From a virus (lineage: Duplodnaviria; Heunggongvirae; Uroviricota; Caudoviricetes), in IMG/VR virus record IMGVR_UViG_2563366895_000001, positions 1 through 64,000 of that record: a stretch of DNA of 64,000 nt; one strand, given 5' to 3'. The position numbers and the translations under genes were made by a program. Every line of letters starts with the position of its first letter. Position 1 is the stretch's first letter. Shown here piece by piece: positions 2,558 through 55,293 of the stretch. The notes below the pieces were generated by a model. That model was given only the letters and a program-made list of their open reading frames with translations, was not told the DNA's origin and did not search any database.

Positions 2558-3118
2558 TTAGTGCATGATATTTGCCATCTCATAGGCGTCAGCCAGCAAC
2601 TCCATCTCTGACTTGTTCAGCAGGGTGAATTCTTTCTTGCCTCCAACCACACCATCGGCATGAACAGGGACCAGCCAGGGGTATTTTTCTCTTACTTCAG
2701 CCGGTGCTGCATGCTGGTGGTGCCATCTACAAAGGGGCAATTGCTTTTTGTGACAACCCGGCGCGGTACGACCGGAGATATGGTGCAGAGACACCTCTTC
2801 AGATATTACTCCATGCATGTAGCAGGCAATGCAGGGGAGAGTGCCAAGAGCATTGGCGATGGTCCGTTCCTCCGCCGTCGGTGTTCGCCCCTTCAAGCCA
2901 CGAGATTTTATTTTTACCGCACTTTTCCGCGTTTTGCTGGCTGGTGGGCGCTCTTTCTGTTTAGCGATACGGCGGTCGATAGAATCCCGCATTTTCTGAT
3001 ATTGCGATTCTCGCCAGGCGGGGTCAGCCAACTTTTCCCGTTGCCGAGCGATCGCTCGTTCTCTGGCTGCCTTCTGCCACTCGCGGCGCTGTTCAAGTTT
3101 TTGTTCGATTGTTTTCAT
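2558..3118 (-). CDS. ref: Ref recombination-enhancement function, HNH-family endonuclease
   Basis: Begins MKTIEQKLEQRREW at the internal ATG (3118) of the 221-aa track ORF, giving 186 aa; cysteine/histidine-rich C-terminus (CIACYMHG...HHISGR...CRWHH); position downstream of cre as in P1; the upstream ATG at 3223 lies upstream of the promoter/operator. Confidence 0.8.
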   Translation of the reverse strand: MKTIEQKLEQRREWQKAARERAIARQREKLADPAWRESQYQKMRDSIDRRIAKQKERPPASKTRKSAVKIKSRGLKGRTPTAEERTIANALGTLPCIACYMHGVISEEVSLHHISGRTAPGCHKKQLPLCRWHHQHAAPAEVREKYPWLVPVHADGVVGGKKEFTLLNKSEMELLADAYEMANIMH

Positions 3119-3123
3119 ATGGC

Positions 3124-3149
3124 AAAAAAAAGGCGGCCTAATGGCCGCC
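3124..3149 (-). terminator. Intrinsic terminator-like hairpin plus T8 run in the ref leader
   Basis: Minus strand reads GGCGGCCATTAGGCCGCC followed by TTTTTTTT, ending 5 nt before the ref ATG; lies between the putative ref promoter/operator and the start codon. Confidence 0.4.
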
Positions 3150-3216
3150 AATGATGTCAAGGAGTGAAGTAATGGCAACGTCTTCGTAGTTGACAAAAAC
3201 TGCGACTCAATTATAG

Positions 3217-3233
3217 CAACCAATTAGAGCAAT
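3217..3233 (-). promoter_or_regulatory. C1 operator-like site overlapping putative ref promoter
   Basis: Plus strand caaccAATTAGAGCAAT (11 of 17 consensus positions); minus strand has gctataat -10 immediately downstream. Confidence 0.45.
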
Positions 3234-3364
3234 TAAAGTTGTTTATTTATCGCGAATCACATTTTTTCACTTCAGTACCTGTGTGCTATACTCCTTCTTG
3301 ATTGATTGGATGCGGAATACAAACCCGCTCTTTTGTGCAGCCTGGCTCCTTGCCAGGCTTTTTT

Positions 3365-3676
3365 TTATTTCATCATGGAAGCTGTTAACGCTTTGGACCT
3401 TGCTGAACTGATTGAGAGGGCTTTGTCAACGTGCCCCAAAAATTCGCCAAACTCAGACATCACTTTAGCAAAACCGCGCCGTGCTTCTTCCTCGGTGGCA
3501 TTCATCACGAAATGTTCAGCACCACGCATACTTTTGACAGGGAACGCAACGGATATTGAATCAATATCAGGCATTCTATCGCTCAGCTTTACAGTGACAA
3601 TGACGGCTGGCGACTGAATATTAGTGCTTACAGACAGCACTACATATTTTCCGTCGATTTTGAAATCCTTTCTCAT
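3365..3676 (-). CDS. Hypothetical protein downstream of cre (c8-like position)
   Basis: 103-aa ORF; operator-like site at 3693-3709 just upstream. Confidence 0.45.
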   Translation of the reverse strand: MRKDFKIDGKYVVLSVSTNIQSPAVIVTVKLSDRMPDIDSISVAFPVKSMRGAEHFVMNATEEEARRGFAKVMSEFGEFLGHVDKALSISSARSKALTASMMK

Positions 3677-3692
3677 ATGTCACCATAAATAT

Positions 3693-3709
3693 CAAAGAAT
3701 TAGAGCAAT
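3693..3709 (-). promoter_or_regulatory. C1 operator-like site (partial match)
   Basis: caaagaATTAGAGCAAT between the cre stop and the 103-aa ORF. Confidence 0.35.
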
Positions 3710-3726
3710 CATTTACGCGTTAATGG

Positions 3727-4758
3727 CTAATCGCCATCTTCCAGCAGGCGCACCATTGCCCCCGTTTCACTATCCAGGTTACGAATGTAGTTCATGACAA
3801 TATTTACGTTGGTCCAGCCGCCAGCTTGCATGATCTCCGGTATAGAAACTCCGGCGCGGGCCATATCTCGCGCGGCACCGACACGGGCACTATGTCCAGA
3901 CCAGGCCAGGTATCGCTGACCAGAGTCATCTTTTGCCCCGTAAATCAATCGGTGAGTTGCTTCAAAAATCCCTTCCAGGGCGCGAGTTGATAGCTGGCTG
4001 GTGGATGATGGCGCGGCAACACCATTTTTTCTGACGCGGCAAAACAGGTAGTTATTCGGATCATCAGCTACACCAGAGACAGAAATCCATCGCTCAACCA
4101 GTTTAGTTACCCCCAGGCTAAGTGCCTTCTCTACACCAGCGGTGCTAACCAGCGTTTTCGTTCTGCCAATATGGATTAACATTCTCCCACCGTCAGTACG
4201 TGAGATATCTTTAACCCTGATCCTGGAAATTTCGGCTATACGTAACAGGGTGTTATAAGCAATCCCCAGAAATGCCAGATTACGTATATCCTGGCAGCGA
4301 TCGCTATTTTCCATGAGTGAACGAACCTGGTCGAAATCAGTGCGTTCGAACGCCAGTGCCTGTTTTGCACGTTCACCGGCATCAACGTTTTCTTTTCGGA
4401 TCCGTCGCATGACCAGTGAAACAGCATTGCTGTCACTTGGTCGTGGCAGACCGGACCGACGATGAAGCATATTTAGCTGGCCCAAATGTTGCTGGATAGT
4501 TTTCACTGCCAGACCGCGCGCCTGAAGATATAGAAGATAATCGCGAACATCTTCAGGTTCTGCGGGAAACCACTTCCGGTTATTCAACTTGCACCATGCC
4601 GCCCACGACCGGCAAACGGACAGAAGCATTTTCCAGGTATGCTCAGAAAACGCCTGGCGATCCCTGAACATGTCCATCAGGTTCTTGCGAACCTCATCAC
4701 TCGTTGCATCGACCGGTAATGCAGGCAAATTTTGGTGTACGGTCAGTAAATTGGACAT
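3727..4758 (-). CDS. cre: Cre site-specific tyrosine recombinase
   Basis: 343-aa translation recognised as P1 Cre (MSNLLTVHQNLPALPVDATSDEVRKNLMDMF...; catalytic region ...HSARVGAARDMARAGVSIPEIMQAGGWTNVNIVMNYIRNLD); loxP lies 420 bp upstream. Confidence 0.97.
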   Translation of the reverse strand: MSNLLTVHQNLPALPVDATSDEVRKNLMDMFRDRQAFSEHTWKMLLSVCRSWAAWCKLNNRKWFPAEPEDVRDYLLYLQARGLAVKTIQQHLGQLNMLHRRSGLPRPSDSNAVSLVMRRIRKENVDAGERAKQALAFERTDFDQVRSLMENSDRCQDIRNLAFLGIAYNTLLRIAEISRIRVKDISRTDGGRMLIHIGRTKTLVSTAGVEKALSLGVTKLVERWISVSGVADDPNNYLFCRVRKNGVAAPSSTSQLSTRALEGIFEATHRLIYGAKDDSGQRYLAWSGHSARVGAARDMARAGVSIPEIMQAGGWTNVNIVMNYIRNLDSETGAMVRLLEDGD

Positions 4759-5591: not shown

Positions 5592-5801
5592 ATGGCTTTC
5601 ATTCAACCAACCATCGACGACGTTAGACATTGCTCTAACGCTTTATCTGTAGACCCTGCCGAAACCGACGCTGCCCGCGCCATTGCTGAACACTACTCAA
5701 AGATATCCAATCAGGAGTACCGCATCACCCAAGACGACCTGGATGACCTCACTGACACAATCGAATATCTCATGGCAACTAACCAGTTGGACTCACAATA
5801 A
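5592..5801 (+). CDS. coi: Coi, C1 inactivator
   Basis: 69-aa ORF directly upstream of c1 on the same strand, downstream of C1 operators. Confidence 0.8.
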   Translation: MAFIQPTIDDVRHCSNALSVDPAETDAARAIAEHYSKISNQEYRITQDDLDDLTDTIEYLMATNQLDSQ

Positions 5802-5911
5802 ATGCACTAATAAATCTATTATTTTTGTTTGATCCCTCTATAATATAGGTCAGTAATGACCGGTTTTCTCAGCCGGGCGTTATTGACCATGTCAATTCTG
5901 GAGGAGGATCA

Positions 5912-6763
5912 ATGATAAATTATGTCTACGGCGAACAACTGTACCAGGAGTTCGTCAGCTTCAGGGATCTCTTTCTAAAAAAAGCTGTTGCACGCGCCCA
6001 ACACGTTGATACAGCCAGCGACGGTCGTCCTGTACGCCCGGTTGTCGTTCTACCGTTCAAAGAAACTGACAGCATTCAGGCTGAAATTGATAAATGGACT
6101 TTAATGGCGCGGGAACTGGAACAGTACCCAGACCTCAATATCCCAAAGACTATTTTATATCCAGTGCCTAACATCCTTCGCGGTGTGCGTAAGGTTACAA
6201 CTTATCAGACAGAGGCTGTGAACAGCGTCAACATGACCGCTGGCCGCATTATTCATCTGATTGATAAGGACATTCGCATCCAAAAAAGCGCGGGGATCAA
6301 TGAGCACAGTGCGAAATACATAGAGAACCTGGAAGCAACAAAAGAGCTAATGAAGCAGTACCCGGAGGATGAAAAATTCCGTATGCGCGTACACGGCTTT
6401 AGCGAAACAATGCTGCGCGTCCACTACATTTCCAGTAGCCCTAACTACAATGATGGTAAATCAGTTAGTTACCATGTGCCACTGTGTGGCGTGTTTATCT
6501 GCGATGAAACTCTCCGTGATGGAATTATCATCAACGGTGAATTCGAAAAAGCAAAATTTAGCCTTTATGACTCCATAGAACCGATCATCTGCGACCGCTG
6601 GCCGCAAGCAAAAATATATCGCCTGGCAGATATTGAAAATGTAAAAAAACAAATTGCCATCACTCGCGAAGAGAAAAAGGTTAAGTCAGCCGCATCAGTT
6701 ACGCGCAGCCGTAAAACCAAGAAGGGGCAGCCAGTAAACGACAACCCCGAAAGCGCGCAATAA
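5912..6763 (+). CDS. c1: C1 repressor of lysis
   Basis: 283-aa ORF (MINYVYGEQLYQEFVSFRDLFLKKAVARAQHVD...), length and context as P1 C1; its operator is scattered across the window. Confidence 0.9.
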   Translation: MINYVYGEQLYQEFVSFRDLFLKKAVARAQHVDTASDGRPVRPVVVLPFKETDSIQAEIDKWTLMARELEQYPDLNIPKTILYPVPNILRGVRKVTTYQTEAVNSVNMTAGRIIHLIDKDIRIQKSAGINEHSAKYIENLEATKELMKQYPEDEKFRMRVHGFSETMLRVHYISSSPNYNDGKSVSYHVPLCGVFICDETLRDGIIINGEFEKAKFSLYDSIEPIICDRWPQAKIYRLADIENVKKQIAITREEKKVKSAASVTRSRKTKKGQPVNDNPESAQ

Positions 6764-6768
6764 ATTAT

Positions 6769-6786
6769 GCCCGGCATCAACCGGGC
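6769..6786. terminator. Hairpin between convergent c1 and ant-like genes
   Basis: gcccggcatcaaccgggc. Confidence 0.35.
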
Positions 6787-6795
6787 ATTCTTCCA

Positions 6796-7911
6796 TTATT
6801 CAGCCGCCACCGGTTTTAACAAGCCAGCATCGAGCAGTTTACGCGTCAACCACTGCTGGCCTTTACCCGTTAATTGAGGCGTCAACCGTATCTGGTAGCC
6901 ATCTTCATCATCCAGCACCACTTCTTTCACCGTGAAATACCCCGCGTTGATGTACTGCTGGAACGGCACATTTTTACGTCCACCGGACGCTATCAGGATG
7001 CCGTTCTCCCGTAACCAGGCAAACAGCGCGTTTTGCTTAAGTCCAACAACCTTTGCAAAATTCCCAATCAGGATCCCTTTAGCTACTGATACCCGGTCGG
7101 CAAAATCGACTTTAGGAGCGGCGGCCACCAGCTGCTGATTTAGCTGGTGGGCTTTCTGTTCCAGAAGCTGCTTTTGTTCAGCCAGTTCGGCAGCCAGGCG
7201 TAGGGCTTCTGGTAATGTTTGGGGGATTGCAACCGGTTGCTGTTCTTTTTGTCGGAAGTAGCTGTCTTCCAGTTTTTCAAAGAATGCCCATGCCTGATCG
7301 GTTTCGATCATTTTAGCGTGGCGGGCTGCGCCGCGTTCCGTCCAGAGGATGAGTGAGCGGGCTTTAGGAGAGATAGGATTTTGTGAGTTACTTAAAGTCA
7401 CTCGCAAATTGTTCAAATCATCTCCAATAACTTTATAGAAATGCTTGCCTTCACAAAAACGTTCAGCATTACGGGAAAAGTTCTTCTTGATGTTATCCGC
7501 ATCTGTCCCATACCCCTTAGCAAGGATCTTAGTTGTCACTACACGCACTCCCAGCCATTCCAGAACGGGAATTTCATCAGACTGATTCTGAACAACCACC
7601 AGCTCCGATTCCTGAACTGAAGGTGCATGAGTTTTTTCTGATTTAACGTTAGTTGCTTTCATTCTGTGTGCCTCCTTGCGTGTTTCGGCTGCGACGGTTG
7701 CGTAATTCAGATGCCCCTGTTCGAGCAGGTATTCGCGGATATCAGACAACAGAATGCGGTGAACAGCGTTCTTGTCCTTTCTCCGGTAAAGTTGTTTGGT
7801 GATCATGAAGTAGTTGGCAATAACGCCCGGTATATCCCTGGTACTGATACAGGATGTGTGCTGTTCAATTGCCTCAATCATTTCTTCACGGGTGACTAAT
7901 GACGTTCTCAT
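6796..7911 (-). CDS. Antirepressor-like protein (KilA-C type C-terminal domain), paralog of immI Ant
   Basis: 371 aa; C-terminal about 95 aa nearly identical to Ant at 53426-54463 (GILIGNFAKVVGLKQNALF...GYFTVKEVVLDDEDGYQIRLTPQLTGKGQQWLTRKLLDAGLLKPVA) and related to KilA. Confidence 0.7.
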   Translation of the reverse strand: MRTSLVTREEMIEAIEQHTSCISTRDIPGVIANYFMITKQLYRRKDKNAVHRILLSDIREYLLEQGHLNYATVAAETRKEAHRMKATNVKSEKTHAPSVQESELVVVQNQSDEIPVLEWLGVRVVTTKILAKGYGTDADNIKKNFSRNAERFCEGKHFYKVIGDDLNNLRVTLSNSQNPISPKARSLILWTERGAARHAKMIETDQAWAFFEKLEDSYFRQKEQQPVAIPQTLPEALRLAAELAEQKQLLEQKAHQLNQQLVAAAPKVDFADRVSVAKGILIGNFAKVVGLKQNALFAWLRENGILIASGGRKNVPFQQYINAGYFTVKEVVLDDEDGYQIRLTPQLTGKGQQWLTRKLLDAGLLKPVAAE

Positions 7912-8129
7912 AGTCCCTCCTGAGCAGAAGCGTTAACAGGGAGGCACCAGTAACTGAGAGAGTTGCGCGAATCAGTGGAAAAGCGGGCAGAGAAAATGCA
8001 GGGAGCGTCAGGAAGCTGAGAACGGGCCTCATCTTCTGTCGGTGCAATAACGAAGTGATAGTGACGTTTCTGGCAGGAATAGAAGCGCCAGATGAATTCA
8101 GGATGAGTTGGGGTAGGGACAGTAGCCAT
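7908..8129 (-). CDS. Icd-like small protein (paralog of the icd at 54460-54681)
   Basis: 73 aa; shares EFIWRFYSCxKxHYHFVIAxTEDEARSQLPDxPCIFxARFSTxSRNSLSYW with the other 73-aa ORF; stop overlaps the ant-like start; RBS aaggagg. Confidence 0.55.
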   Translation of the reverse strand: MATVPTPTHPEFIWRFYSCQKRHYHFVIAPTEDEARSQLPDAPCIFSARFSTDSRNSLSYWCLPVNASAQEGL

Positions 8130-8313
8130 AATGGCAGCCTCCTTTGACTAAGTTAAGGAGCTACCGCGTGAGGTCTCAATCTCAATGGCGGTAGCACTGA
8201 CTGGGTTGAGACTACCGGCGTCAAAGGGAACCGGCCTGCCTTTCGGCAGCCCAGCCAGCACTACCATTGATTTCGGAGCTAAACGCTACGTATGGCTGTG
8301 CGATGGCATGACA

Positions 8314-8450
8314 CAAAAAAAGACGCTTTCGGCGTCTGTGTCGCCTTTGACATTATCCGGGGTCTCAATCCCGGCACCCGTTTTAATGAGGTGCCTGATA
8401 AGCATAAACCGAAAATGCCTCAAGGCGCAAGAGGTCAGGTTCAATGTAAC
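8314..8450 (-). ncRNA. c4-like antisense RNA region of the second immI-like module (approximate)
   Basis: Leader between the C1 operator (8469-8485) and the icd-like start; minus strand has hairpin CCGGGATTGAGACCCCGG, then terminator GACGCCGAAAGCGTC plus T7, then downstream complementary GTCTCAAC near the RBS. Confidence 0.35.
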
Positions 8451-8468
8451 ATCGGTAGTTAAAAAACA

Positions 8469-8485
8469 CAATTTATTAGAGCAAA
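8469..8485 (-). promoter_or_regulatory. C1 operator upstream of the icd/ant-like module
   Basis: cAATTTATTAGAGCAAa. Confidence 0.55.
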
Positions 8486-8488
8486 TAT

Positions 8489-9973
8489 TCATTCATTAAG
8501 CCATGCCAGAGCTTCATCAACCTGCGCTTCGTCTTCGACGCTAAGCACTTCATCCTGGGGAACATAATCCGCCAGCATAGCGAAACAATATGTATCCCAA
8601 TGGTCTGGTGAGTGCAGGTTGAGTTTTTTCTTCATATCCTCCTTACTCATCACCTTCCATTGACCTGCGGAGTTAATCCCTACAGGGATTTTCGACGCTT
8701 CCTCAATAGTTTCATTACCCTTATCCAGTCTCATACGACCAGATTTTACGGCCTCTGCGGCTTGAACGTTGGCATAAGCACGTTTATCAAAGTACAGGCT
8801 CTTATCTTCACGGCTATGCATCTTTTTACCCCAGCGTATGCGCTGTACGGTAATACCATAATACTCGTACATCAGATCCGCCGTTGCTTTACCCAGGCCA
8901 TCGCCGTCTATCGCTATGGTGATATTTGGGAATCGCTCAGGATTACATTCTGCGAAAATTTTGGCGGCAAGCTGCGTTTCTGTAACGTCTGTGTATTCCA
9001 GCATTCGATAGTTGATTACACGGCGTTTATTTCGCTGGCCGGACACCATCATGATATTGATAACGGACTTATCCCGTCCTGTACCACCAGCAACGTCCAC
9101 ACATGCAAGCCAGCCCCATCCTTTGGCAATCTTGACTTTCCGCCGCGTCGCACGTTCAACCTCATCACGTCCAAGAAGGAAGCCGTCCTGTGATTTAGGG
9201 AATAGCCCGCGTACCTTAATCATGTACATAGGGTTATCACGCCCGCCGTACTCCGCCAGCTTCATTTTGATAAATGCTGGCGTTACCAGCGGTGATTCCT
9301 CACTGTTAAGCGTGATCGCCGTATAAACGCCATCAGGGTTACCAGGACGCTTGGCCAGTTTATGGTGAGTATCGTAGAAATAGCCGCTTGGGCGTGTAGG
9401 CTGTGACAGTAATAAGATGCGGTTATCCTGTCCGGTAAGAGCACCAGTGATGATACCGAAAGCTCTATCACTGACACCGGAGGCTTCATCGATAATATAC
9501 AGAAGATGATCTGCGTGTTCACCGGCGAGAGCTTCTTCACTTCCCAGACGAAAGCCCTTCGGTACTACAGTCCATACACCTTTACCAGTAACCTCATAGA
9601 AAGCGGTTTCTGTCAGAACAAAATAATCAGCAAGCCATGGAAAACGGCTGGTGGCAGTAGCCCAGTTTATCTTGATGTACTTGAATATACCGGTCATTAC
9701 CTGCTGAATTTTGTTCGCAACGATAATGGCGCGGGCACCGGGATACATGATTATGAACAACATGATCATGATAGAAGTCATGTCTGATTTCCCGGTACCG
9801 TGACCAGACGAAACAGATGTCTTGCTACCCTGTTCCTGCACAGACTCAATAATCAGATCCTGCTGCCAGGTAGGTGTTTTGCCGAACAAAACATCAGCGG
9901 CCGCAATCCAGTCATAACGATATAGCGCCACCAGCTCGCGCCAACGTGGATCCGTTACGCAACTTCTGGCCAT
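8489..9973 (-). CDS. pacB: PacB, terminase large subunit
   Basis: 494-aa ORF whose start overlaps the pacA stop; gene order as in P1. Confidence 0.85.
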
Positions 9974-11166
9974 TAATCATCATCCCCGTATAGCTTGCGG
10001 GTAACTTCTTCGTCTTCCTCCTCGTCTTCGTCCAGGTCTTGTTCCAGCCATGGGTCGTTTGATACACCTTCAGTATCAACATCTCCATAACCGCCTGTAT
10101 CAACAATATCGGCGATTTCTTCCCTACGCTGCTCAATCCACAATGCGGCATCGGCGCGGCGGTTGGCGGCCCGTTCTCGCGCAACTTTGTCCAGATCTTC
10201 AAGAGAAGGGCCACCGACGGCTGTTTGCCTTTCCTCATCATCGGTATTGGTCTTAGGAGCACGCAGATCGGCTTTGATTTGCTCCAGCATCAGGGGCGGT
10301 ACTTTCCCTCCATGCGCCTCGATGAATTCAGCTGCCTCCAGCACTGACCAGTTGTTTTCACGCTTTCGTTCGTATGCCAGCTTAACAATGCCAGCTTGCC
10401 CCATAGACAAAGCGTGCTTTTCCGCCTCCCGGCTTTCTTTTCGATAGTTATTCCGGATGCTGTAAATGGTGTTGATCAGGCTGCTTATCTGCGCGGAACA
10501 GCTGTTTAGCATGCTCGCGATACGGTATTCAGGCGGAGTACCTTCATCATCGTCTTTTTGCTGATCGCGCATTTCCTGCACCAGGCGAATACACGTATCC
10601 CTGGCGTTCTCCAGCATAAGGAGATGAGAAAGAGACTTTTCCAGAAGAGTGGTTTCCAGAACATCAGCTCCGGAACGACGCAACATAGCGCGCGCGGCCT
10701 TCCGCGCTTCAACGTTATCTATCAGGTAATCGCCAGCTTCGAATTCAAAGCGTTCACCATCATCATCCAGGGTGTCGCGTTCCAGGCGATCACGTAAGGT
10801 CCGGTGGGCGCGGGTGATCACGTCATGATCATCTGAACGATCATTTATGCGCTTATTTTGGCGCTTCGCGTTCTCGACTGCGGCACTGACAACAGCATTA
10901 ACTCTTTGTTTTTCTGCCATTTCAGCCGCAATATGATCACCTGCATGTTGATCATTAGAGTGATCAATGATCATGCTTTTTAGTGGCTTCCTGACTGGCT
11001 TATTTGGCTTGCGGCTGTCCACAGTCCTGGTGTCTTCTTTGAAGGCACGGAGATAACGACGTGCGGTATTAGGGTTAAGATTAAACTCGGCGGCATACTG
11101 TGCGATGGTGTAACCACCATCTCGCGCCAGGCGAGCAAAATTCTTCTTGTGATCGTCCCAGGTCAC
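9973..11166 (-). CDS. pacA: PacA, terminase small subunit / pac-recognition protein
   Basis: 397-aa ORF with acidic C-terminus; contains the pac site within its coding sequence. Confidence 0.85.
10815..10973. other. pac: pac packaging site (hexanucleotide TGATCA/G elements with Dam sites)
   Basis: Seven TGATCA-type hexamers in two clusters (three at 10815-10843, four at 10934-10973) inside pacA, about 5.6 kb from loxP. Confidence 0.75.
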
Positions 11167-50953: not shown

Positions 50954-51109
50954 TTACCTTTCAGATTCGTAGGCTGTGAAGACAGTGACCTCCGTCTGGC
51001 CGGTTCGGATTCGTACCTCGCAGAGGTCTTTCCTCGTTACCAGTGCCGTCACAATGACGGTTAAACAGATGACGATCAGAGCGATTAACATCGCTTTTTG
51101 CTGCTTCAT
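50954..51109 (-). CDS. hok: Hok/Gef-family type I toxin
   Basis: 51-aa ORF translated codon by codon: MKQQKAMLIALIVICLTVIVTALVTRKDLCEVRIRTGQTEVTVFTAYESER, close to E. coli HokD/RelF and HokC; AAGGAG RBS; below track cut-off. Confidence 0.85.
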   Translation of the reverse strand: MKQQKAMLIALIVICLTVIVTALVTRKDLCEVRIRTGQTEVTVFTAYESER

Positions 51110-51167
51110 AGCCTGCTTCTCCTTGACCTTTTGGTCGGTAAGAGGCTAATCTACGTATGCTAAGCAT
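50961..51167 (-). CDS. mok: Mok (modulation of killing) reading frame overlapping hok
   Basis: 68-aa track ORF overlapping hok in another frame and ending near the hok stop. Confidence 0.6.
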   Translation of the reverse strand: MLSIRRLASYRPKGQGEAGYEAAKSDVNRSDRHLFNRHCDGTGNEERPLRGTNPNRPDGGHCLHSLRI

Positions 51168-51230
51168 AGATATGGCCTCAGATTAATGTTAAGCGTCTTG
51201 CAGGACGCGTAATGTTATCTGGGGCTTTCT
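51159..51230 (+). ncRNA. sok: Sok-like antisense RNA (approximate)
   Basis: Plus-strand TTGACC, 18 bp, TAATCT promoter at 51123-51152 firing antisense across the mok start/RBS; 3' end not pinned down. Confidence 0.35.
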
Positions 51231-51290
51231 TCTATCTGCTTTTCGGGTAATGCCTGAAGCAGATAGCCTCAAGCACCCGCAACGATTGTA

Positions 51291-51617
51291 TCAATGTCTG
51301 GCTTTTTTTCTATAGAAATCACCTGGAAGGGTGAATATCCACATCAAAAGAAATGTTGCAGCAAACATGATCCCTAATGGCCAGACCGCGCCAAAGAAAA
51401 TCCATACTAAGATCTCCTCTGTTCGTTCTTTGCGGTCGATATCGACAAGCATTTTTCGGCTGATCATGTATACACAGAAGCCAATACAAACATATCCTGC
51501 AAAAGAGATCGCTAACTGTAAAAAATCAGATTGCATCTCCGACCTCAAACTGAAAACGCCAGGTGACTCCAGATTAGAGCAATTTATCACCCTCTGAATC
51601 CTGCCGGTATACCCCAT
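51291..51617 (-). CDS. Small membrane protein
   Basis: 108 aa with three hydrophobic segments. Confidence 0.4.
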   Translation of the reverse strand: MGYTGRIQRVINCSNLESPGVFSLRSEMQSDFLQLAISFAGYVCIGFCVYMISRKMLVDIDRKERTEEILVWIFFGAVWPLGIMFAATFLLMWIFTLPGDFYRKKARH

Positions 51618-52432
51618 TGTTCGTTATCTTTATTTTTGGCTAAAACCGCATTAAGAGCTTCGTTTACCGTCATGCAATGCGGCAGATTATCGAAGTTTGA
51701 TATCCCGCCAATATCAGGAGAACGCTTGTCCTTCAGGTAAGCATATTTCCGCGCTGCCGCCTCTACTTTCTGCTTGAACTCATGTTTTTGAGCGCGTTTT
51801 TTGGATAACCGCAGATTGTCAGCCTTTGCTTTTGCCTCAGCGATCCATGAAGTCAATTTTTTGAGTCTGGTCGTTCCGGCACCGCCGGAAACTGATCTTT
51901 TTGTTTTTTTAACTTGTGACTTCTTATTCTTTATTGCCACGTCATCCTGACAGGGGGAGGGGGTATCATTTTGACATGGGGGTGTGGATAAAAAATTAAA
52001 TAAAGCCAATGTCTTAGCGAGAACAGCTTTAACCTTGGTTGCCGCTGAAGAGATCTTTAATTTGCTTTCAATCAGCGCATTTTTGGCTTGTTGTGCGAAG
52101 GCCAAAAAGGATGGTGTAAACCGGTACAGGTTAGCGCGACGTTCACGGTGATCGCCGATAACAATCTCTACAGACAGGATTCCTTTGTTTACAGCTTCAC
52201 GGAATGCACGAACGACGGTTGATTGGCTATAACCAGTTTCTGCCGCGATCAGGCGGTGAGGCTTGTGAATGAAGTATTCACTGGTTGTTGCCGCGAGATT
52301 TGCACATTGCGACAGGATATGCCCGGCGCTACGGGATAGACCGGAGTGTGTTACAAAGCAGGCCAATTCATAGCCAGAAAAAGTAAAATCGCTCATCGTT
52401 ATACAGCTCAGGAAAGTGACTTTAGCCAGCAT
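51587..52432 (-). CDS. repL: RepL lytic replication initiator
   Basis: 281-aa ORF directly downstream of kilA, downstream of the Op53-type operator. Confidence 0.7.
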   Translation of the reverse strand: MLAKVTFLSCITMSDFTFSGYELACFVTHSGLSRSAGHILSQCANLAATTSEYFIHKPHRLIAAETGYSQSTVVRAFREAVNKGILSVEIVIGDHRERRANLYRFTPSFLAFAQQAKNALIESKLKISSAATKVKAVLAKTLALFNFLSTPPCQNDTPSPCQDDVAIKNKKSQVKKTKRSVSGGAGTTRLKKLTSWIAEAKAKADNLRLSKKRAQKHEFKQKVEAAARKYAYLKDKRSPDIGGISNFDNLPHCMTVNEALNAVLAKNKDNEQWGIPAGFRG

Positions 52433-52461: not shown

Positions 52462-53262
52462 TTAGCGCGTTGCCGCGACAGGTACCAGCACACCAGCATC
52501 AAGCAATCGCTTCATCAGCCACTGCTGACCTTTGCCGGTTATACGAGTCGTGAAAGAAATCCTGCTTCCATTGCTTGTATCGATCACGGTTTCTTTAAGG
52601 GTGAAATACCCACGGGATATGTATTCTTGTTTGGGGACGTTCCTGCGTTCACCGGTTGCGATCAGAATTCCGTTATCACGCAACCAGGTGAAGAGATAGT
52701 TTTGGCCCAGGCCGAGCACTTTGGCATAGTTGCCGATTAGAACCCCGCTGGCGGTAGCAACGCGTTCGGCGAATTCGACTTTAGGTGCATCCATCAGCAT
52801 TTTTTGCTCCAGCCGTTGCTTTTGCTCTGCCAGGTCGGCAGCCAAACGGAGAGCTTCTGGGAGGCTCTTCGGAATAGCAGGTTGTAATCTTCCAGCTCGA
52901 TAGTCGATAAATGTCTGGTTTACCTTCAGCCGAAACGCGGGAGAAATCCAACCAGCGTACTCCACTGCGAGCAATTCATGGGCAAAAGTGCCGCCGCCAC
53001 GGCCTTCGAACGAAACTATGCAATTCTGCATAGTTTCTTTTTCAAGCTCTTCGATGAGCTGTTTAGCTGACAGCGTTCTTAGCCATTGAGCTGGCGCTTT
53101 ATGGGCACCGAGTCCGCTCGCTCTGTGTAGAGCATTAAGGTTGTAACGGCCAGCGCGGTCGGTCGTAATTTCAACACCACAAATAACAGGCAGAGTGGTT
53201 GAAGGATCGACATTTTGATGAAGGTTTGATATATTCATATCCGCATTGAATGTTTGTTGCAT
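52462..53262 (-). CDS. kilA: KilA (KilA-N DNA-binding domain plus KilA-C domain)
   Basis: 266 aa; C-terminus shares the LIGNYAKVLGLGQN...GYFTLKE block with the Ant proteins. Confidence 0.7.
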   Translation of the reverse strand: MQQTFNADMNISNLHQNVDPSTTLPVICGVEITTDRAGRYNLNALHRASGLGAHKAPAQWLRTLSAKQLIEELEKETMQNCIVSFEGRGGGTFAHELLAVEYAGWISPAFRLKVNQTFIDYRAGRLQPAIPKSLPEALRLAADLAEQKQRLEQKMLMDAPKVEFAERVATASGVLIGNYAKVLGLGQNYLFTWLRDNGILIATGERRNVPKQEYISRGYFTLKETVIDTSNGSRISFTTRITGKGQQWLMKRLLDAGVLVPVAATR

Positions 53263-53425: not shown

Positions 53426-54463
53426 TTAACCTATTGCTACTGGTTTTAACAAACCAGCATCAAGTAGCTTGCGAGTTAACCACTGCTGGCCTTTACCCGT
53501 TAATTGGGGCGTCAGCCGTATCTGGTAGCCATTTTCATCATCCAGCACCACTTCTTTCACCGTGAAATACCCGGCGTTAATGTACTGCTGGCGCGGTACG
53601 TTTTTGCGCGCACCAAAAGCCATGAGAATGCCGTTCTGGCGCAACCATGAGAAAAGGGCGTTTTGCTTAAGTCCAACGACCTTTGCAAAGTTCCCGATCA
53701 GGATTGCATTAGCCGCTGATACCCGGTCGGCAAAATCGACTTTAGGGGCTGCGGCCACCAGCTGTTGTTCCAACTGCATTTTCTGTTCTGCCAACTCGGC
53801 AGCCAGGCGTAGAGCGTCTGGTAATGTTTGGGGGATCGATGGCGCAGGGGAGTTTGCCTGCTGCAATTCTTCCAGTTTGTCGATCAGCGAACGGCGGACT
53901 GCTTTTGACTCGCGCGCGGCGACTCGCAGGGCTTGTTTGAAAGTCATGGTTATGACAAGCATTGATGTTTTGTTCATTTTTTCCACTACACTTTTTGTGT
54001 AGTGCTCACCATCAAGCTCATCGAGTATTTTTTCGATGAATTTGTTGTTCCGAACCTCTGGTTCCCTACATAACTTACGCGCTTCATTGACCATCTTTAA
54101 CAGTGTCAGGCTGTCGATTGTGTCTCCGGTGTTGGGGATGATATTCACGGCTGGTGCTGGCGTAGCTGAAGCAACAGGTGCTGGTTTTTCAACATTCAAA
54201 TTATTACCGGTCATTCTGCGCGCCTCCTTTCTCATTTCTGCTGCCACTGTTGCGTAACGTAGACGTCCTTGTTCAATCAAATAATCCCTGATCTCGGCTA
54301 TCAGTAGCCTGTTGATCACAGCCTTATCTGTTCGGGTATAAAAACGTCTGGTTATCATGAAATAGTTGGCAATTGCGCCGGGGATCTCCCGTGTCGGCAT
54401 ACAGGTTGTATGCAAAGCGATCGCTTTGGCTATTTCATTACGGGTGACGAGAGGTTTTTTCAT
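53426..54463 (-). CDS. ant: Ant antirepressor (immI)
   Basis: 345-aa ORF whose start overlaps the icd stop; KilA-C type C-terminus. Confidence 0.75.
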   Translation of the reverse strand: MKKPLVTRNEIAKAIALHTTCMPTREIPGAIANYFMITRRFYTRTDKAVINRLLIAEIRDYLIEQGRLRYATVAAEMRKEARRMTGNNLNVEKPAPVASATPAPAVNIIPNTGDTIDSLTLLKMVNEARKLCREPEVRNNKFIEKILDELDGEHYTKSVVEKMNKTSMLVITMTFKQALRVAARESKAVRRSLIDKLEELQQANSPAPSIPQTLPDALRLAAELAEQKMQLEQQLVAAAPKVDFADRVSAANAILIGNFAKVVGLKQNALFSWLRQNGILMAFGARKNVPRQQYINAGYFTVKEVVLDDENGYQIRLTPQLTGKGQQWLTRKLLDAGLLKPVAIG

Positions 54464-54681
54464 AAAACCCCCTGAACGTCGGCAGAGAAGGGGAGGTTCC
54501 AGTAACTAAGTGAATTGCGCGAGTTAGTTGAAAAACGGGCAGTAAAAATGCAGGGGCCATCAGGCAATTGAGAGCGTGCTTCGTCTTCTGTTGCTGCGAT
54601 GACGAAGTGATAGTGGTGTTTTTTGCAGGAATAGAAACGCCAGATGAATTCTTGGCGTGCGCAAGGATTGGCATTAACCAT
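54460..54681 (-). CDS. icd: Icd (immI small protein translationally coupled to ant)
   Basis: 73-aa ORF (MVNANPCARQEFIWRFYSCKKHHYHFVIAATEDEARSQLPDGPCIF...), RBS-bearing leader upstream. Confidence 0.65.
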   Translation of the reverse strand: MVNANPCARQEFIWRFYSCKKHHYHFVIAATEDEARSQLPDGPCIFTARFSTNSRNSLSYWNLPFSADVQGVL

Positions 54682-54699
54682 AGTTACGGCCTCACAATC

Positions 54700-54960
54700 A
54701 GGTTTAACAACCTGCTACCCGCTGCTAAACAGGTGGCAGGACGTGACGGGGTTAGCAGACTGGCGATTGTGAAACCAGCAGGCCGAAGCCTCCCCATCCC
54801 GCCCCACCATAATTTGGGCGTAACGCGGTTTTACGGACACAAAAATACCGCAATATCGGATATCTGCGGCTGTCCGCACAATCATTCAGGCTGCTAAACC
54901 CGGTCGCAGAATTTGCTACGACGGCGAAACTATAAGCCTGAACGATTAAAAGGTCAATAT
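54700..54960 (-). ncRNA. c4: c4-type antisense RNA and its target sites in the immI leader (approximate)
   Basis: Between the Op51-type operator and icd; minus strand has GGGTTTAGCAGCC, then complementary GTCTGCTAAC, then a second TTTAGCAG next to the icd RBS. Confidence 0.4.
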
Positions 54961-54994
54961 GATGCGAAAAGATAGCATTCGCGACTTAAAAATA

Positions 54995-55011
54995 CAAATT
55001 TATTAGAGCAG
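54995..55011 (-). promoter_or_regulatory. C1 operator upstream of immI (Op51-type)
   Basis: AAATTTATTAGAGCAga, 15 of 17. Confidence 0.6.
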
Positions 55012-55293
55012 ATTAGTGTCGTGCAATAGATATATTATTTGTGATGAAAAATAATGCAGAGGGATATTGTAACTTTAAGATGGATATCAATAGTCGATAC
55101 ATAAATTAAGTTAGCAATAAACTATTAACTTAAGAAATAATGCAGATGGTGAACTTGTCTCTGACTTTTCAGCTATACACAATAAGTTAGGGATAGCTTA
55201 TAAAAAGTTGATTAATTGATATAAGTCAATGGGAGTATTCTTGTTTACTTTCCGTTCTCGTGGTAACTTCTCGCCGGTTTTTGTTTTTCTGGG

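Follow-up and report, generated by a model that had tools for sequence, protein, structure and literature searches.

What occupies the interval between c1, the main repressor gene, and pacB in a P1-like phage-plasmid, when P1 and P7 carry nothing there? The question is raised by the IMG/VR virus record IMGVR_UViG_2563366895_000001, of which positions 1 to 64,000 (the window) were analyzed; the element in the window is a P1-like phage-plasmid. An earlier note, made from the sequence alone, had described beside c1 (5912-6763, plus strand) a paralogous pair of genes for a 73-amino-acid (aa) Icd-like and a 371-aa antirepressor-like (Ant-like) protein, and both genes and all associated elements are found there. 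Heteroimmunity between P1 and P7 is a textbook case in which a small antisense RNA sets the specificity of immunity. The segment between c1 and pacB is likely to be a second, self-contained immunity cassette of the immI type that is connected to the C1 circuit. The element also carries a canonical immI of P7 type, and the segment is a second copy at another locus.

Compared with P1 and P7, the cassette is an insertion, because the stop codons of c1 and pacB are only 24 bp apart in both phages. Alignment of the junctions gives an insertion of 1.72 kb, from window position 6764 to about 8485, and pacB lies beside it (8489-9973, minus strand). Matches of P1, P7, SJ46 and others to window positions 5800-9000 are restricted to the c1 and pacB flanks, which make up 46% of the query. 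The same stretch is 99.6% identical to phage RCS47. The earlier note had proposed comparing this interval with P1 and P7 and had allowed that reference P1 might carry something in it; the comparison finds the cassette in neither phage.

The cassette begins with a leader that encodes two structured RNAs. Sites are named after the P1 GenBank record, in which a is the first target and pairs with a', a single-stranded stretch 3' of hairpin 2 of the C4 RNA. Site b overlaps the icd ribosome-binding site and pairs with b', the loop of C4 hairpin 2. All features of the cassette lie on the minus strand and are listed from the pacB end. The leader contains the following elements.

8316-8394, minus strand: IsrK-type leader RNA (Rfam isrK, RF01394; 60.2 bits against a gathering score of 50)
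8362-8368, minus strand: site a1, UUGAGAC, in the loop of hairpin 2 of the IsrK-type leader
8344-8351, minus strand: site b1, GTCAAAGG (RNA GUCAAAGG), single-stranded in the IsrK-type leader
8321-8337, minus strand: hairpin of an intrinsic terminator in the IsrK-type leader, followed by seven T (terminator scan)
8184-8271, minus strand: C4-type antisense RNA (Rfam C4, RF01695; 75.4 bits against a gathering score of 45)
8220-8227, minus strand: b', CCTTTGAC (RNA CCUUUGAC), the loop of C4 hairpin 2
8206-8212, minus strand: a', GTCTCAA (RNA GUCUCAA), the single-stranded stretch 3' of C4 hairpin 2
8173-8179, minus strand: site a2, UUGAGAC, directly 3' of C4 in the icd-ant mRNA, 7 nt complementary
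8141-8148, minus strand: site b2, GTCAAAGG (RNA GUCAAAGG), overlapping the icd Shine-Dalgarno sequence AAGGAGG, 8 nt complementary

The C4 RNA gene precedes its target genes on the same strand. Its predicted fold (-46.5 kcal/mol, z = -5.3) has a long closing stem and two hairpins, with GCCA after the stem. In the fold of the full leader, cis pairing is predicted between a1 and a' and between b1 and b'. The earlier note had held that the leader is built as in the canonical module and uses the recognition element GTCTCAA, and had suggested folding it and examining its complementarity to the target. The leader does fold stably, complementarity between C4 and target is perfect, a1/b1, C4 and a2/b2 are all present, and UUGAGAC occurs exactly at both a1 and a2. 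The b pair, as well as the IsrK-type element and terminator upstream of C4, are additions to that description. The Prokaryotic Genome Annotation Pipeline (PGAP) calls a 39-aa 'ash family protein' inside the C4 gene (window 8148-8267, minus strand; 2585-2704 in our locus L088). This open reading frame (ORF) has no NCBIfam match and no Shine-Dalgarno sequence, and is probably an RNA gene annotated as a protein, much like 'orf45' of Gifsy-1.

The specificity of such a leader resides in its two short sites. Site a is TTGACAG in P1 and TTAGCAG in P7; site b is GTTAGTG in P1 and GATTGTG in P7. The canonical immI of the window has the P7 code, and its leader is 98.3% identical to that of P7. Its parts are as follows.

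53426-55012, minus strand: canonical immI, P7 specificity
54996-55012, minus strand: operator
54929-54957, minus strand: promoter
54883-54935, minus strand: c4-a1b1 element
54897-54891: site a1, TTAGCAG
54883-54877: site b1, GATTGTG
54729-54814, minus strand: C4 RNA
54728-54722: site a2, TTAGCAG
54699-54693: site b2, GATTGTG
54460-54681, minus strand: icd
53426-54463, minus strand: ant

At all four sites of each module, the cognate C4 has perfect contiguous complementarity of 7-8 nt. Non-cognate matches are at most 4 nt for the second C4 on the canonical leader and at most 5 nt for the canonical C4 on the second leader, which bears out the difference in antisense specificity that the earlier note had proposed. 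No further paired a and b targets of either C4 were found in the 64-kb window. Counts of contiguous complementarity, together with covariation, were used instead of RNAduplex energies, which are noisy in that flanking bases allow off-target registers. The leader DNA of the two modules is 53% identical and the icd DNA 72.5%, with a range of 53-80% by DNA segment, and the modules are old paralogues. In the canonical leader, a hairpin CCGCAGATATCCGATATTGCGG followed by TATTTTTG lies between b1 and c4 (about 54838-54866, minus strand). Its place is equivalent to that of the IsrK terminator of the second cassette, and it failed the terminator scan.

Natural variation of the leader argues strongly that the pairing has a function. 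Querying IMG/VR with the Icd-like protein yielded 79 loci, whose leaders are of two kinds, isrK-type (65 loci) and P1-type. The isrK-type leaders comprise five a/b specificity alleles. Across the 65 loci, a1, a' and a2 co-vary without exception, and so do b1, b' and b2. Two types of a and two types of b occur in all four combinations among these leaders, and the P1-type leaders have six a/b combinations with equally perfect agreement among sites. Pairs were counted on 25 distinct leaders of the isrK type: 100% of cells are standard pairs for the C4 stems plus a'-a2 and b'-b2, and likewise for the C4 stems plus a1-a' and b1-b'; control structures with slid partners reach 26-49% pairing. Within each pair set, 7 of the 15 intermolecular pairs are changed on both sides. 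The internal stem pairs of C4 are all kept in these relatives (26/26), nine of them with changes on both sides. The leader sequences are related and a few haplotypes are dominant, so shuffle counts do not amount to probabilities. Free reassortment of a and b that yields no mismatched combination would nevertheless be hard to explain barring selection on pairing.

The canonical immI leader is also highly polymorphic (IMG/VR loci L068-L084, with P7, P1 and D6 as L085, L086 and L087). Its site a is TTAGCAG or TTGACAG, and at least five types of site b occur (GATTGTG, GTTAGTG, GTACATG, ACGAATG and ACTTACG). The C4 loop and linker match the sites in every case, a diversity that goes well past the classic pair of P1 and P7. 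At the c1-pacB locus, the commonest other allele is present in a cultured P1-like phage, vB_EcoM-673R5 (2574-3840 in locus L004). In this allele, a is TTGGCCT/TTGGTCT and b is GTCTAAGG, with one G-U pair each; the upstream element scores below the isrK gathering score, and the ant gene, annotated Roi, is shortened to 257 aa.

The leader is followed by two genes from the ORF list.

7908-8129, minus strand: icd-like gene, 73 aa; its stop codon overlaps the ant start by 4 nt (ATGA, 7908-7911)
6796-7911, minus strand: ant-like gene, 371 aa

The second Icd is 79% identical to the canonical Icd and matches the NCBIfam model NF033153 (phage_ICD_like) at 49.8 bits against a cut-off of 25. The ATGA overlap suggests that translation of icd and ant is coupled. 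The second Ant has three parts: a P1 Ant1-type N-terminus (aa 1-83), an ORF6N domain (aa 117-201; PF10543, 66 bits against a gathering score of 27.8) and an ANT/KilAC domain (aa 259-360; PF03374, 109.1 bits against 25.3). An internal Ant2-like start, preceded by AAGGAGG, is found at codon 84 (ATG, 7660-7662), the same codon as in the canonical gene of P1/P7 type. The two Ant proteins of the window are 54% identical overall, with 60% identity in the N-terminal 83 aa, 21% in the middle and 83% in the C-terminal KilAC part. The N-terminal parts had been described as different in the earlier note. That description fits the middle, which is ORF6N in the second protein, and not the first 83 aa, which are related; the C-terminal domains, described as nearly identical, are less alike than that. 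In tblastn searches, the middle and C-terminal parts of the second Ant are 58-62% identical to Roi/Ant proteins of Shiga toxin (Stx) phages, PA36 and HK97. The whole protein is 100% identical to the Ant of RCS47. It reads as a mosaic in which the two ends of P1 Ant surround a core of lambdoid type.

The control region of the cassette contains three candidate sites.

8469-8485, minus strand: C1 operator-like site TTTGCTCTAATAAATTG, 3 nt past the pacB stop codon and inside the inserted segment
8443-8471, minus strand: upstream promoter-like site TTGTGT-17-TACATT, read from the sequence, 7/12 consensus matches
8401-8430, minus strand: downstream promoter-like site TTGCGC-18-TATGCT, read from the sequence, 8/12 consensus matches

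The C1 operator that the earlier note had placed ahead of the second module corresponds to the site at 8469-8485, which differs from the consensus ATTGCTCTAATAAATTT at two positions. The window contains 14 C1 operator-like sites, against 0.31 expected by chance. Sequence comparison finds the site in all pacB-adjacent alleles of the cassette, and finds none at the P1 c1-pacB junction or in the homologous leader of D6. The presence of the operator-like site here and its lack in the D6 homologue would tie the cassette to the C1 circuit. The -35 of the upstream promoter-like site overlaps the final 3 nt of the operator-like site, with the same geometry as P1 P2c4 (P51a). The start predicted for the downstream site is about 8394, where the isrK match begins, and this site is kept in D6 as TTGCGC-18-TATATT. 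The operator overlap and the spacing of the two sites parallel the annotated Oc4, P2c4 (P51a) and P1c4 (P51b) of P1. The upstream site is thus a putative promoter, and the downstream site a putative analogue of P1c4 (P51b); both proposals draw on the geometry of the sites and on their conservation with respect to the promoters annotated in P1.

The operation of the cassette can be proposed from the known systems. In P1, C4 is cut from the leader by RNase P. The immI operon of P1 and P7, with the c4 antisense RNA, icd and ant1/ant2, was reportedly set out by Citron and Schuster in 1990, and translational coupling and Rho polarity are said, in that work and in that of Biere et al. in 1992, to block ant in both phages. 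In the second cassette, transcription would start at two tandem promoters, of which the upstream one would be overlapped by the C1 operator and shut in the lysogen, and the downstream one would probably be constitutive. Most transcripts would end at the terminator of the IsrK-type leader, and read-through would carry C4 and the icd-ant message. C4 would be excised from the leader, as by RNase P in P1, and would pair through its b' loop and a' stretch with a2 and b2, covering the icd ribosome-binding site. The antirepressor would then not be made, with ant coupled to icd translation and the untranslated leader RNA ended by Rho as in P1. Each C4 would silence its own cassette only, because UUGAGAC / GUCAAAGG does not match the P7-type UUAGCAG / GAUUGUG, and the two antirepressors appear to be controlled independently. 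A prophage would be immune only to relatives for which its C4 RNAs match every antirepressor cassette. When it superinfects, the element would escape residents that miss either code. The short IsrK-type RNA, with its decoy a1/b1, may titrate C4 and so switch the cassette on, as for Gifsy-1 IsrK; by this analogy a role as decoy or activator is plausible. The elements, their order, complementarity, covariation and distribution are established here, and to these the scheme adds processing, the translational block, Rho polarity, action of Ant on C1 and the decoy role, all of which we infer from the P1/P7 and Gifsy-1 work.

Compared through the GenBank annotation (AF234172, AF503408), the immI of P1 and P7 shares most of its plan with the second cassette. 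The operator-like site and the two promoter-like sites of the cassette would correspond to the C1 operator and tandem promoters of immI. Both have an upstream a1/b1, a C4 of the same fold, and a2/b2 targets with b2 over the icd ribosome-binding site, so that two short elements set specificity. Both also have a 73-aa Icd gene that overlaps ant by ATGA, nested Ant1/Ant2 starts and a KilAC C-terminus. They differ in location, since immI lies between sim and kilA (repL), whereas the second cassette is in the immC region between c1 and pacB. Where immI has the c4-a1b1 element, the second cassette has a match to isrK that includes a strong intrinsic terminator; its recognition code is unrelated, and its Ant has an ORF6N middle.

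Another close relative is the isrK-orf45(STnc1160)-anrP system of Gifsy-1 (PMC4825925), along with the isrK/C4 pairs of Stx phages. These also combine an IsrK-type RNA with a terminator, a C4-type RNA and an antirepressor gene. In Gifsy-1, the middle part of IsrK is complementary to the C4 region, and the cis pairing predicted for the second cassette resembles 'structure A' of that report. In contrast, the second cassette has icd between C4 and ant, a P1 C1 operator-like site ahead, and a P1-like plasmid prophage as its host. Hershko-Shalev et al. 2016 (PMC4825925) showed that Gifsy-1 IsrK transcripts partly pass the terminator into orf45-anrP, that the long RNA is translationally silent and is activated by short IsrK in trans, and that processing of the orf45 region gives a stable RNA, STnc1160. 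The C4 region was treated there as coding orf45, and the system was likened to P4 seqA/CI; P1 c4 is not mentioned. In the Stx2 phage F039 (2500-2760 in locus L005), in which isrK and C4 are annotated, we find the same three-way complementarity, with a as TTAGGAC and b as CAATCAAGG. The complementary parts are the loop of isrK, the loop and linker of C4, and the stretch that covers the ribosome-binding site of the antirepressor gene. These sequence relationships suggest that IsrK is an a1/b1 element and that Gifsy-1 STnc1160/orf45 is a C4 homologue, a link absent from PMC4825925.

D6 (MF356679) similarly has two cassettes, one with c4-a1b1 and C4 and one with isrK and C4. Its isrK-type leader is 91-94% identical to that of the second cassette and has the same site a, UUGAGAC. 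The D6 cassette differs in site b (GCAAAAGG, with the matching loop CCUUUUGC), in its genomic position, in the absence of an upstream C1 operator, and in its antirepressor, a 313-aa protein like Rha/Roi/KilA. A second antisense/icd region has been noted in a D6-like plasmid (PMC6799933). RCS47 and pTZ20_1P (PMC6906374) carry this insertion too, at the identical position. In the RCS47 record, ant is the only feature annotated in the c1-pacB interval, and the 2019 report (PMC6906374) gives two short hypothetical ORFs and ant at the insertion, without RNA genes, operator or specificity. The ant insertion is thus already in print. For the RNA genes, the operator and the specificity alleles of the c1-pacB cassette in P1-like elements, no earlier account was found in a literature search that did not include the D6 genome paper (Gilcrease & Casjens 2018) or the RCS47 paper.

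The cassette is widespread. At least 80% of the segment is present in 302 plasmids of PLSDB, and the arrangement recurs in RCS47, JL22, 673R5 and hundreds of closed plasmids. Among 703 plasmids with matching c1 and pacB ends, the ends are adjacent as in P1 in 317 and not in the others; the insertion and the reference arrangement are about equally common. The isrK-type cassette in the IMG/VR sample typically has pacB upstream and c1 downstream, and encodes an Ant of about 370 aa. In two PLSDB records (NZ_CP080123.1, 79744-80761; CP098997.1, 95158-96175), about 418 bp separate the c1 and pacB ends, unlike the 24 bp of P1 or the 1.72 kb of the window, and this gap may be a deletion remnant of the cassette. 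Some viral contigs contain at least three C4/icd cassettes, back-to-back or tandem copies among them. Locus L069 has two P1-type C4 in one 5-kb stretch, L008 has two identical isrK-type C4 1.5 kb apart, and contig UViG_2698536372_000019 includes L008, L077 and L082. Such contigs could be real elements or mis-assembled bins.

Several points weigh against a second immunity cassette that acts in the C1 circuit. A standard promoter scan upstream of the leader found neither promoter-like site, and both are weak consensus matches. The strong terminator separates a1/b1 from C4, so that C4 and ant would depend on read-through. The main uncertainty is whether the mosaic Ant acts on C1. Its target may not be C1, because its ORF6N middle is unrelated to P1 Ant and because it resembles lambdoid Roi/Ant. 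RNA control could operate as described while the 371-aa protein, as a Roi/Ant of lambdoid type (ORF6N + KilAC), might act on the repressors of other resident prophages or as a DNA-binding factor of lytic growth; the cassette would then mediate cross-talk with other prophages rather than heteroimmunity of the P1 type. An ORF6N domain does stand in place of the P1 Ant middle, the tblastn identities to Stx phage, PA36 and HK97 proteins point the same way, and leaders of the isrK-C4 type are known from lambdoid and Stx prophages and from Gifsy-1. However, the Ant1-specific N-terminus, the Ant2 start codon and the KilAC part are common to this protein and the canonical P7-type Ant, and the C1 operator-like site, missing in the D6 homologue, would have been acquired. 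We consider this alternative unlikely.

Ant may even be dispensable, because some relatives carry truncated ant genes; in others an insertion sequence (IS) element lies beside the cassette. Both observations would also suit a non-functional passenger, a recombination relic from a D6-like or lambdoid phage kept between two essential genes, as would the fact that P1 and P7 manage without the cassette and that the c1 and pacB ends are adjacent in 317 of the 703 plasmids. Yet three-way compensatory covariation over five alleles and 65 loci, without exception, requires selection on pairing. Moreover, most loci keep intact icd and ant ORFs, and the region of the operator-like and promoter-like sites is conserved among relatives. 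There is very little probability that the cassette is a mere relic. For an artefact of assembly or duplication speaks only the superficial likeness of the two gene pairs, and its probability is close to nil, since leaders, icd genes and Ant proteins diverge to the extent given above (53%, 72.5% and 54% identity) and the flanks differ. The earlier note had itself named an assembly duplication as what would undo its proposal. We reject it on the divergence between the modules, with leaders only 53% identical, and on the recurrence of the same arrangement in RCS47, JL22, 673R5 and hundreds of closed plasmids, including the 302 in PLSDB with at least 80% of the segment. A second immunity cassette of the immI type, controlled through C1, remains the reading that we prefer.

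Other features of the region belong to the P1-like background of the element.

3727-4758, minus strand: cre (ORF list)
5592-5801: coi (ORF list)
6767-6788, minus strand: G+C-rich hairpin between the convergent ant and c1 genes (terminator scan), likely a terminator shared by both
9973-11166, minus strand: pacA (ORF list)

KilA, with KilA-N and ANT domains, is encoded just downstream of the canonical ant (52462-53262, minus strand) and is the third KilAC-domain protein of the element. Further along, a match to the Rfam sok antitoxin RNA (51104-51278, minus strand, 114.9 bits) points to a locus of hok/sok type. It lies downstream of a 281-aa ORF (51587-52432) that is taken as repL.

The cassette between c1 and pacB is a real, common and polymorphic variant of the known immunity system of P1 and P7, and it involves no new mechanism. 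It probably helps to decide which related phages overcome each other's immunity. At least five a/b combinations are seen at the c1-pacB locus and at least six at the canonical immI locus. A bolder and tentative extension, which we hold to be possible but would not yet favor, is that P1-like and D6-like phage-plasmids share a combinatorial immunity code. They would carry one to three C4/icd/ant cassettes with freely reassorting two-element keys, an IsrK-type decoy from a C1-sensitive promoter would serve as a positive-feedback switch, the locus would be under diversifying selection, and Gifsy-1 IsrK/orf45 would use the P1 c4 mechanism. If true, the code would decide which phage-plasmids, many of them with resistance genes, coexist, exclude or induce one another.

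The comparison connects the IsrK system of Salmonella with P1 c4, and the natural compensatory variants offer a ready set for studies of RNA-RNA recognition. The findings suggest that many natural P1-like phage-plasmids, including carriers of resistance genes such as RCS47, have two such locks, each opened by its own key, and that these keys are highly polymorphic. Testable predictions follow as to which elements superinfect or induce which lysogens.

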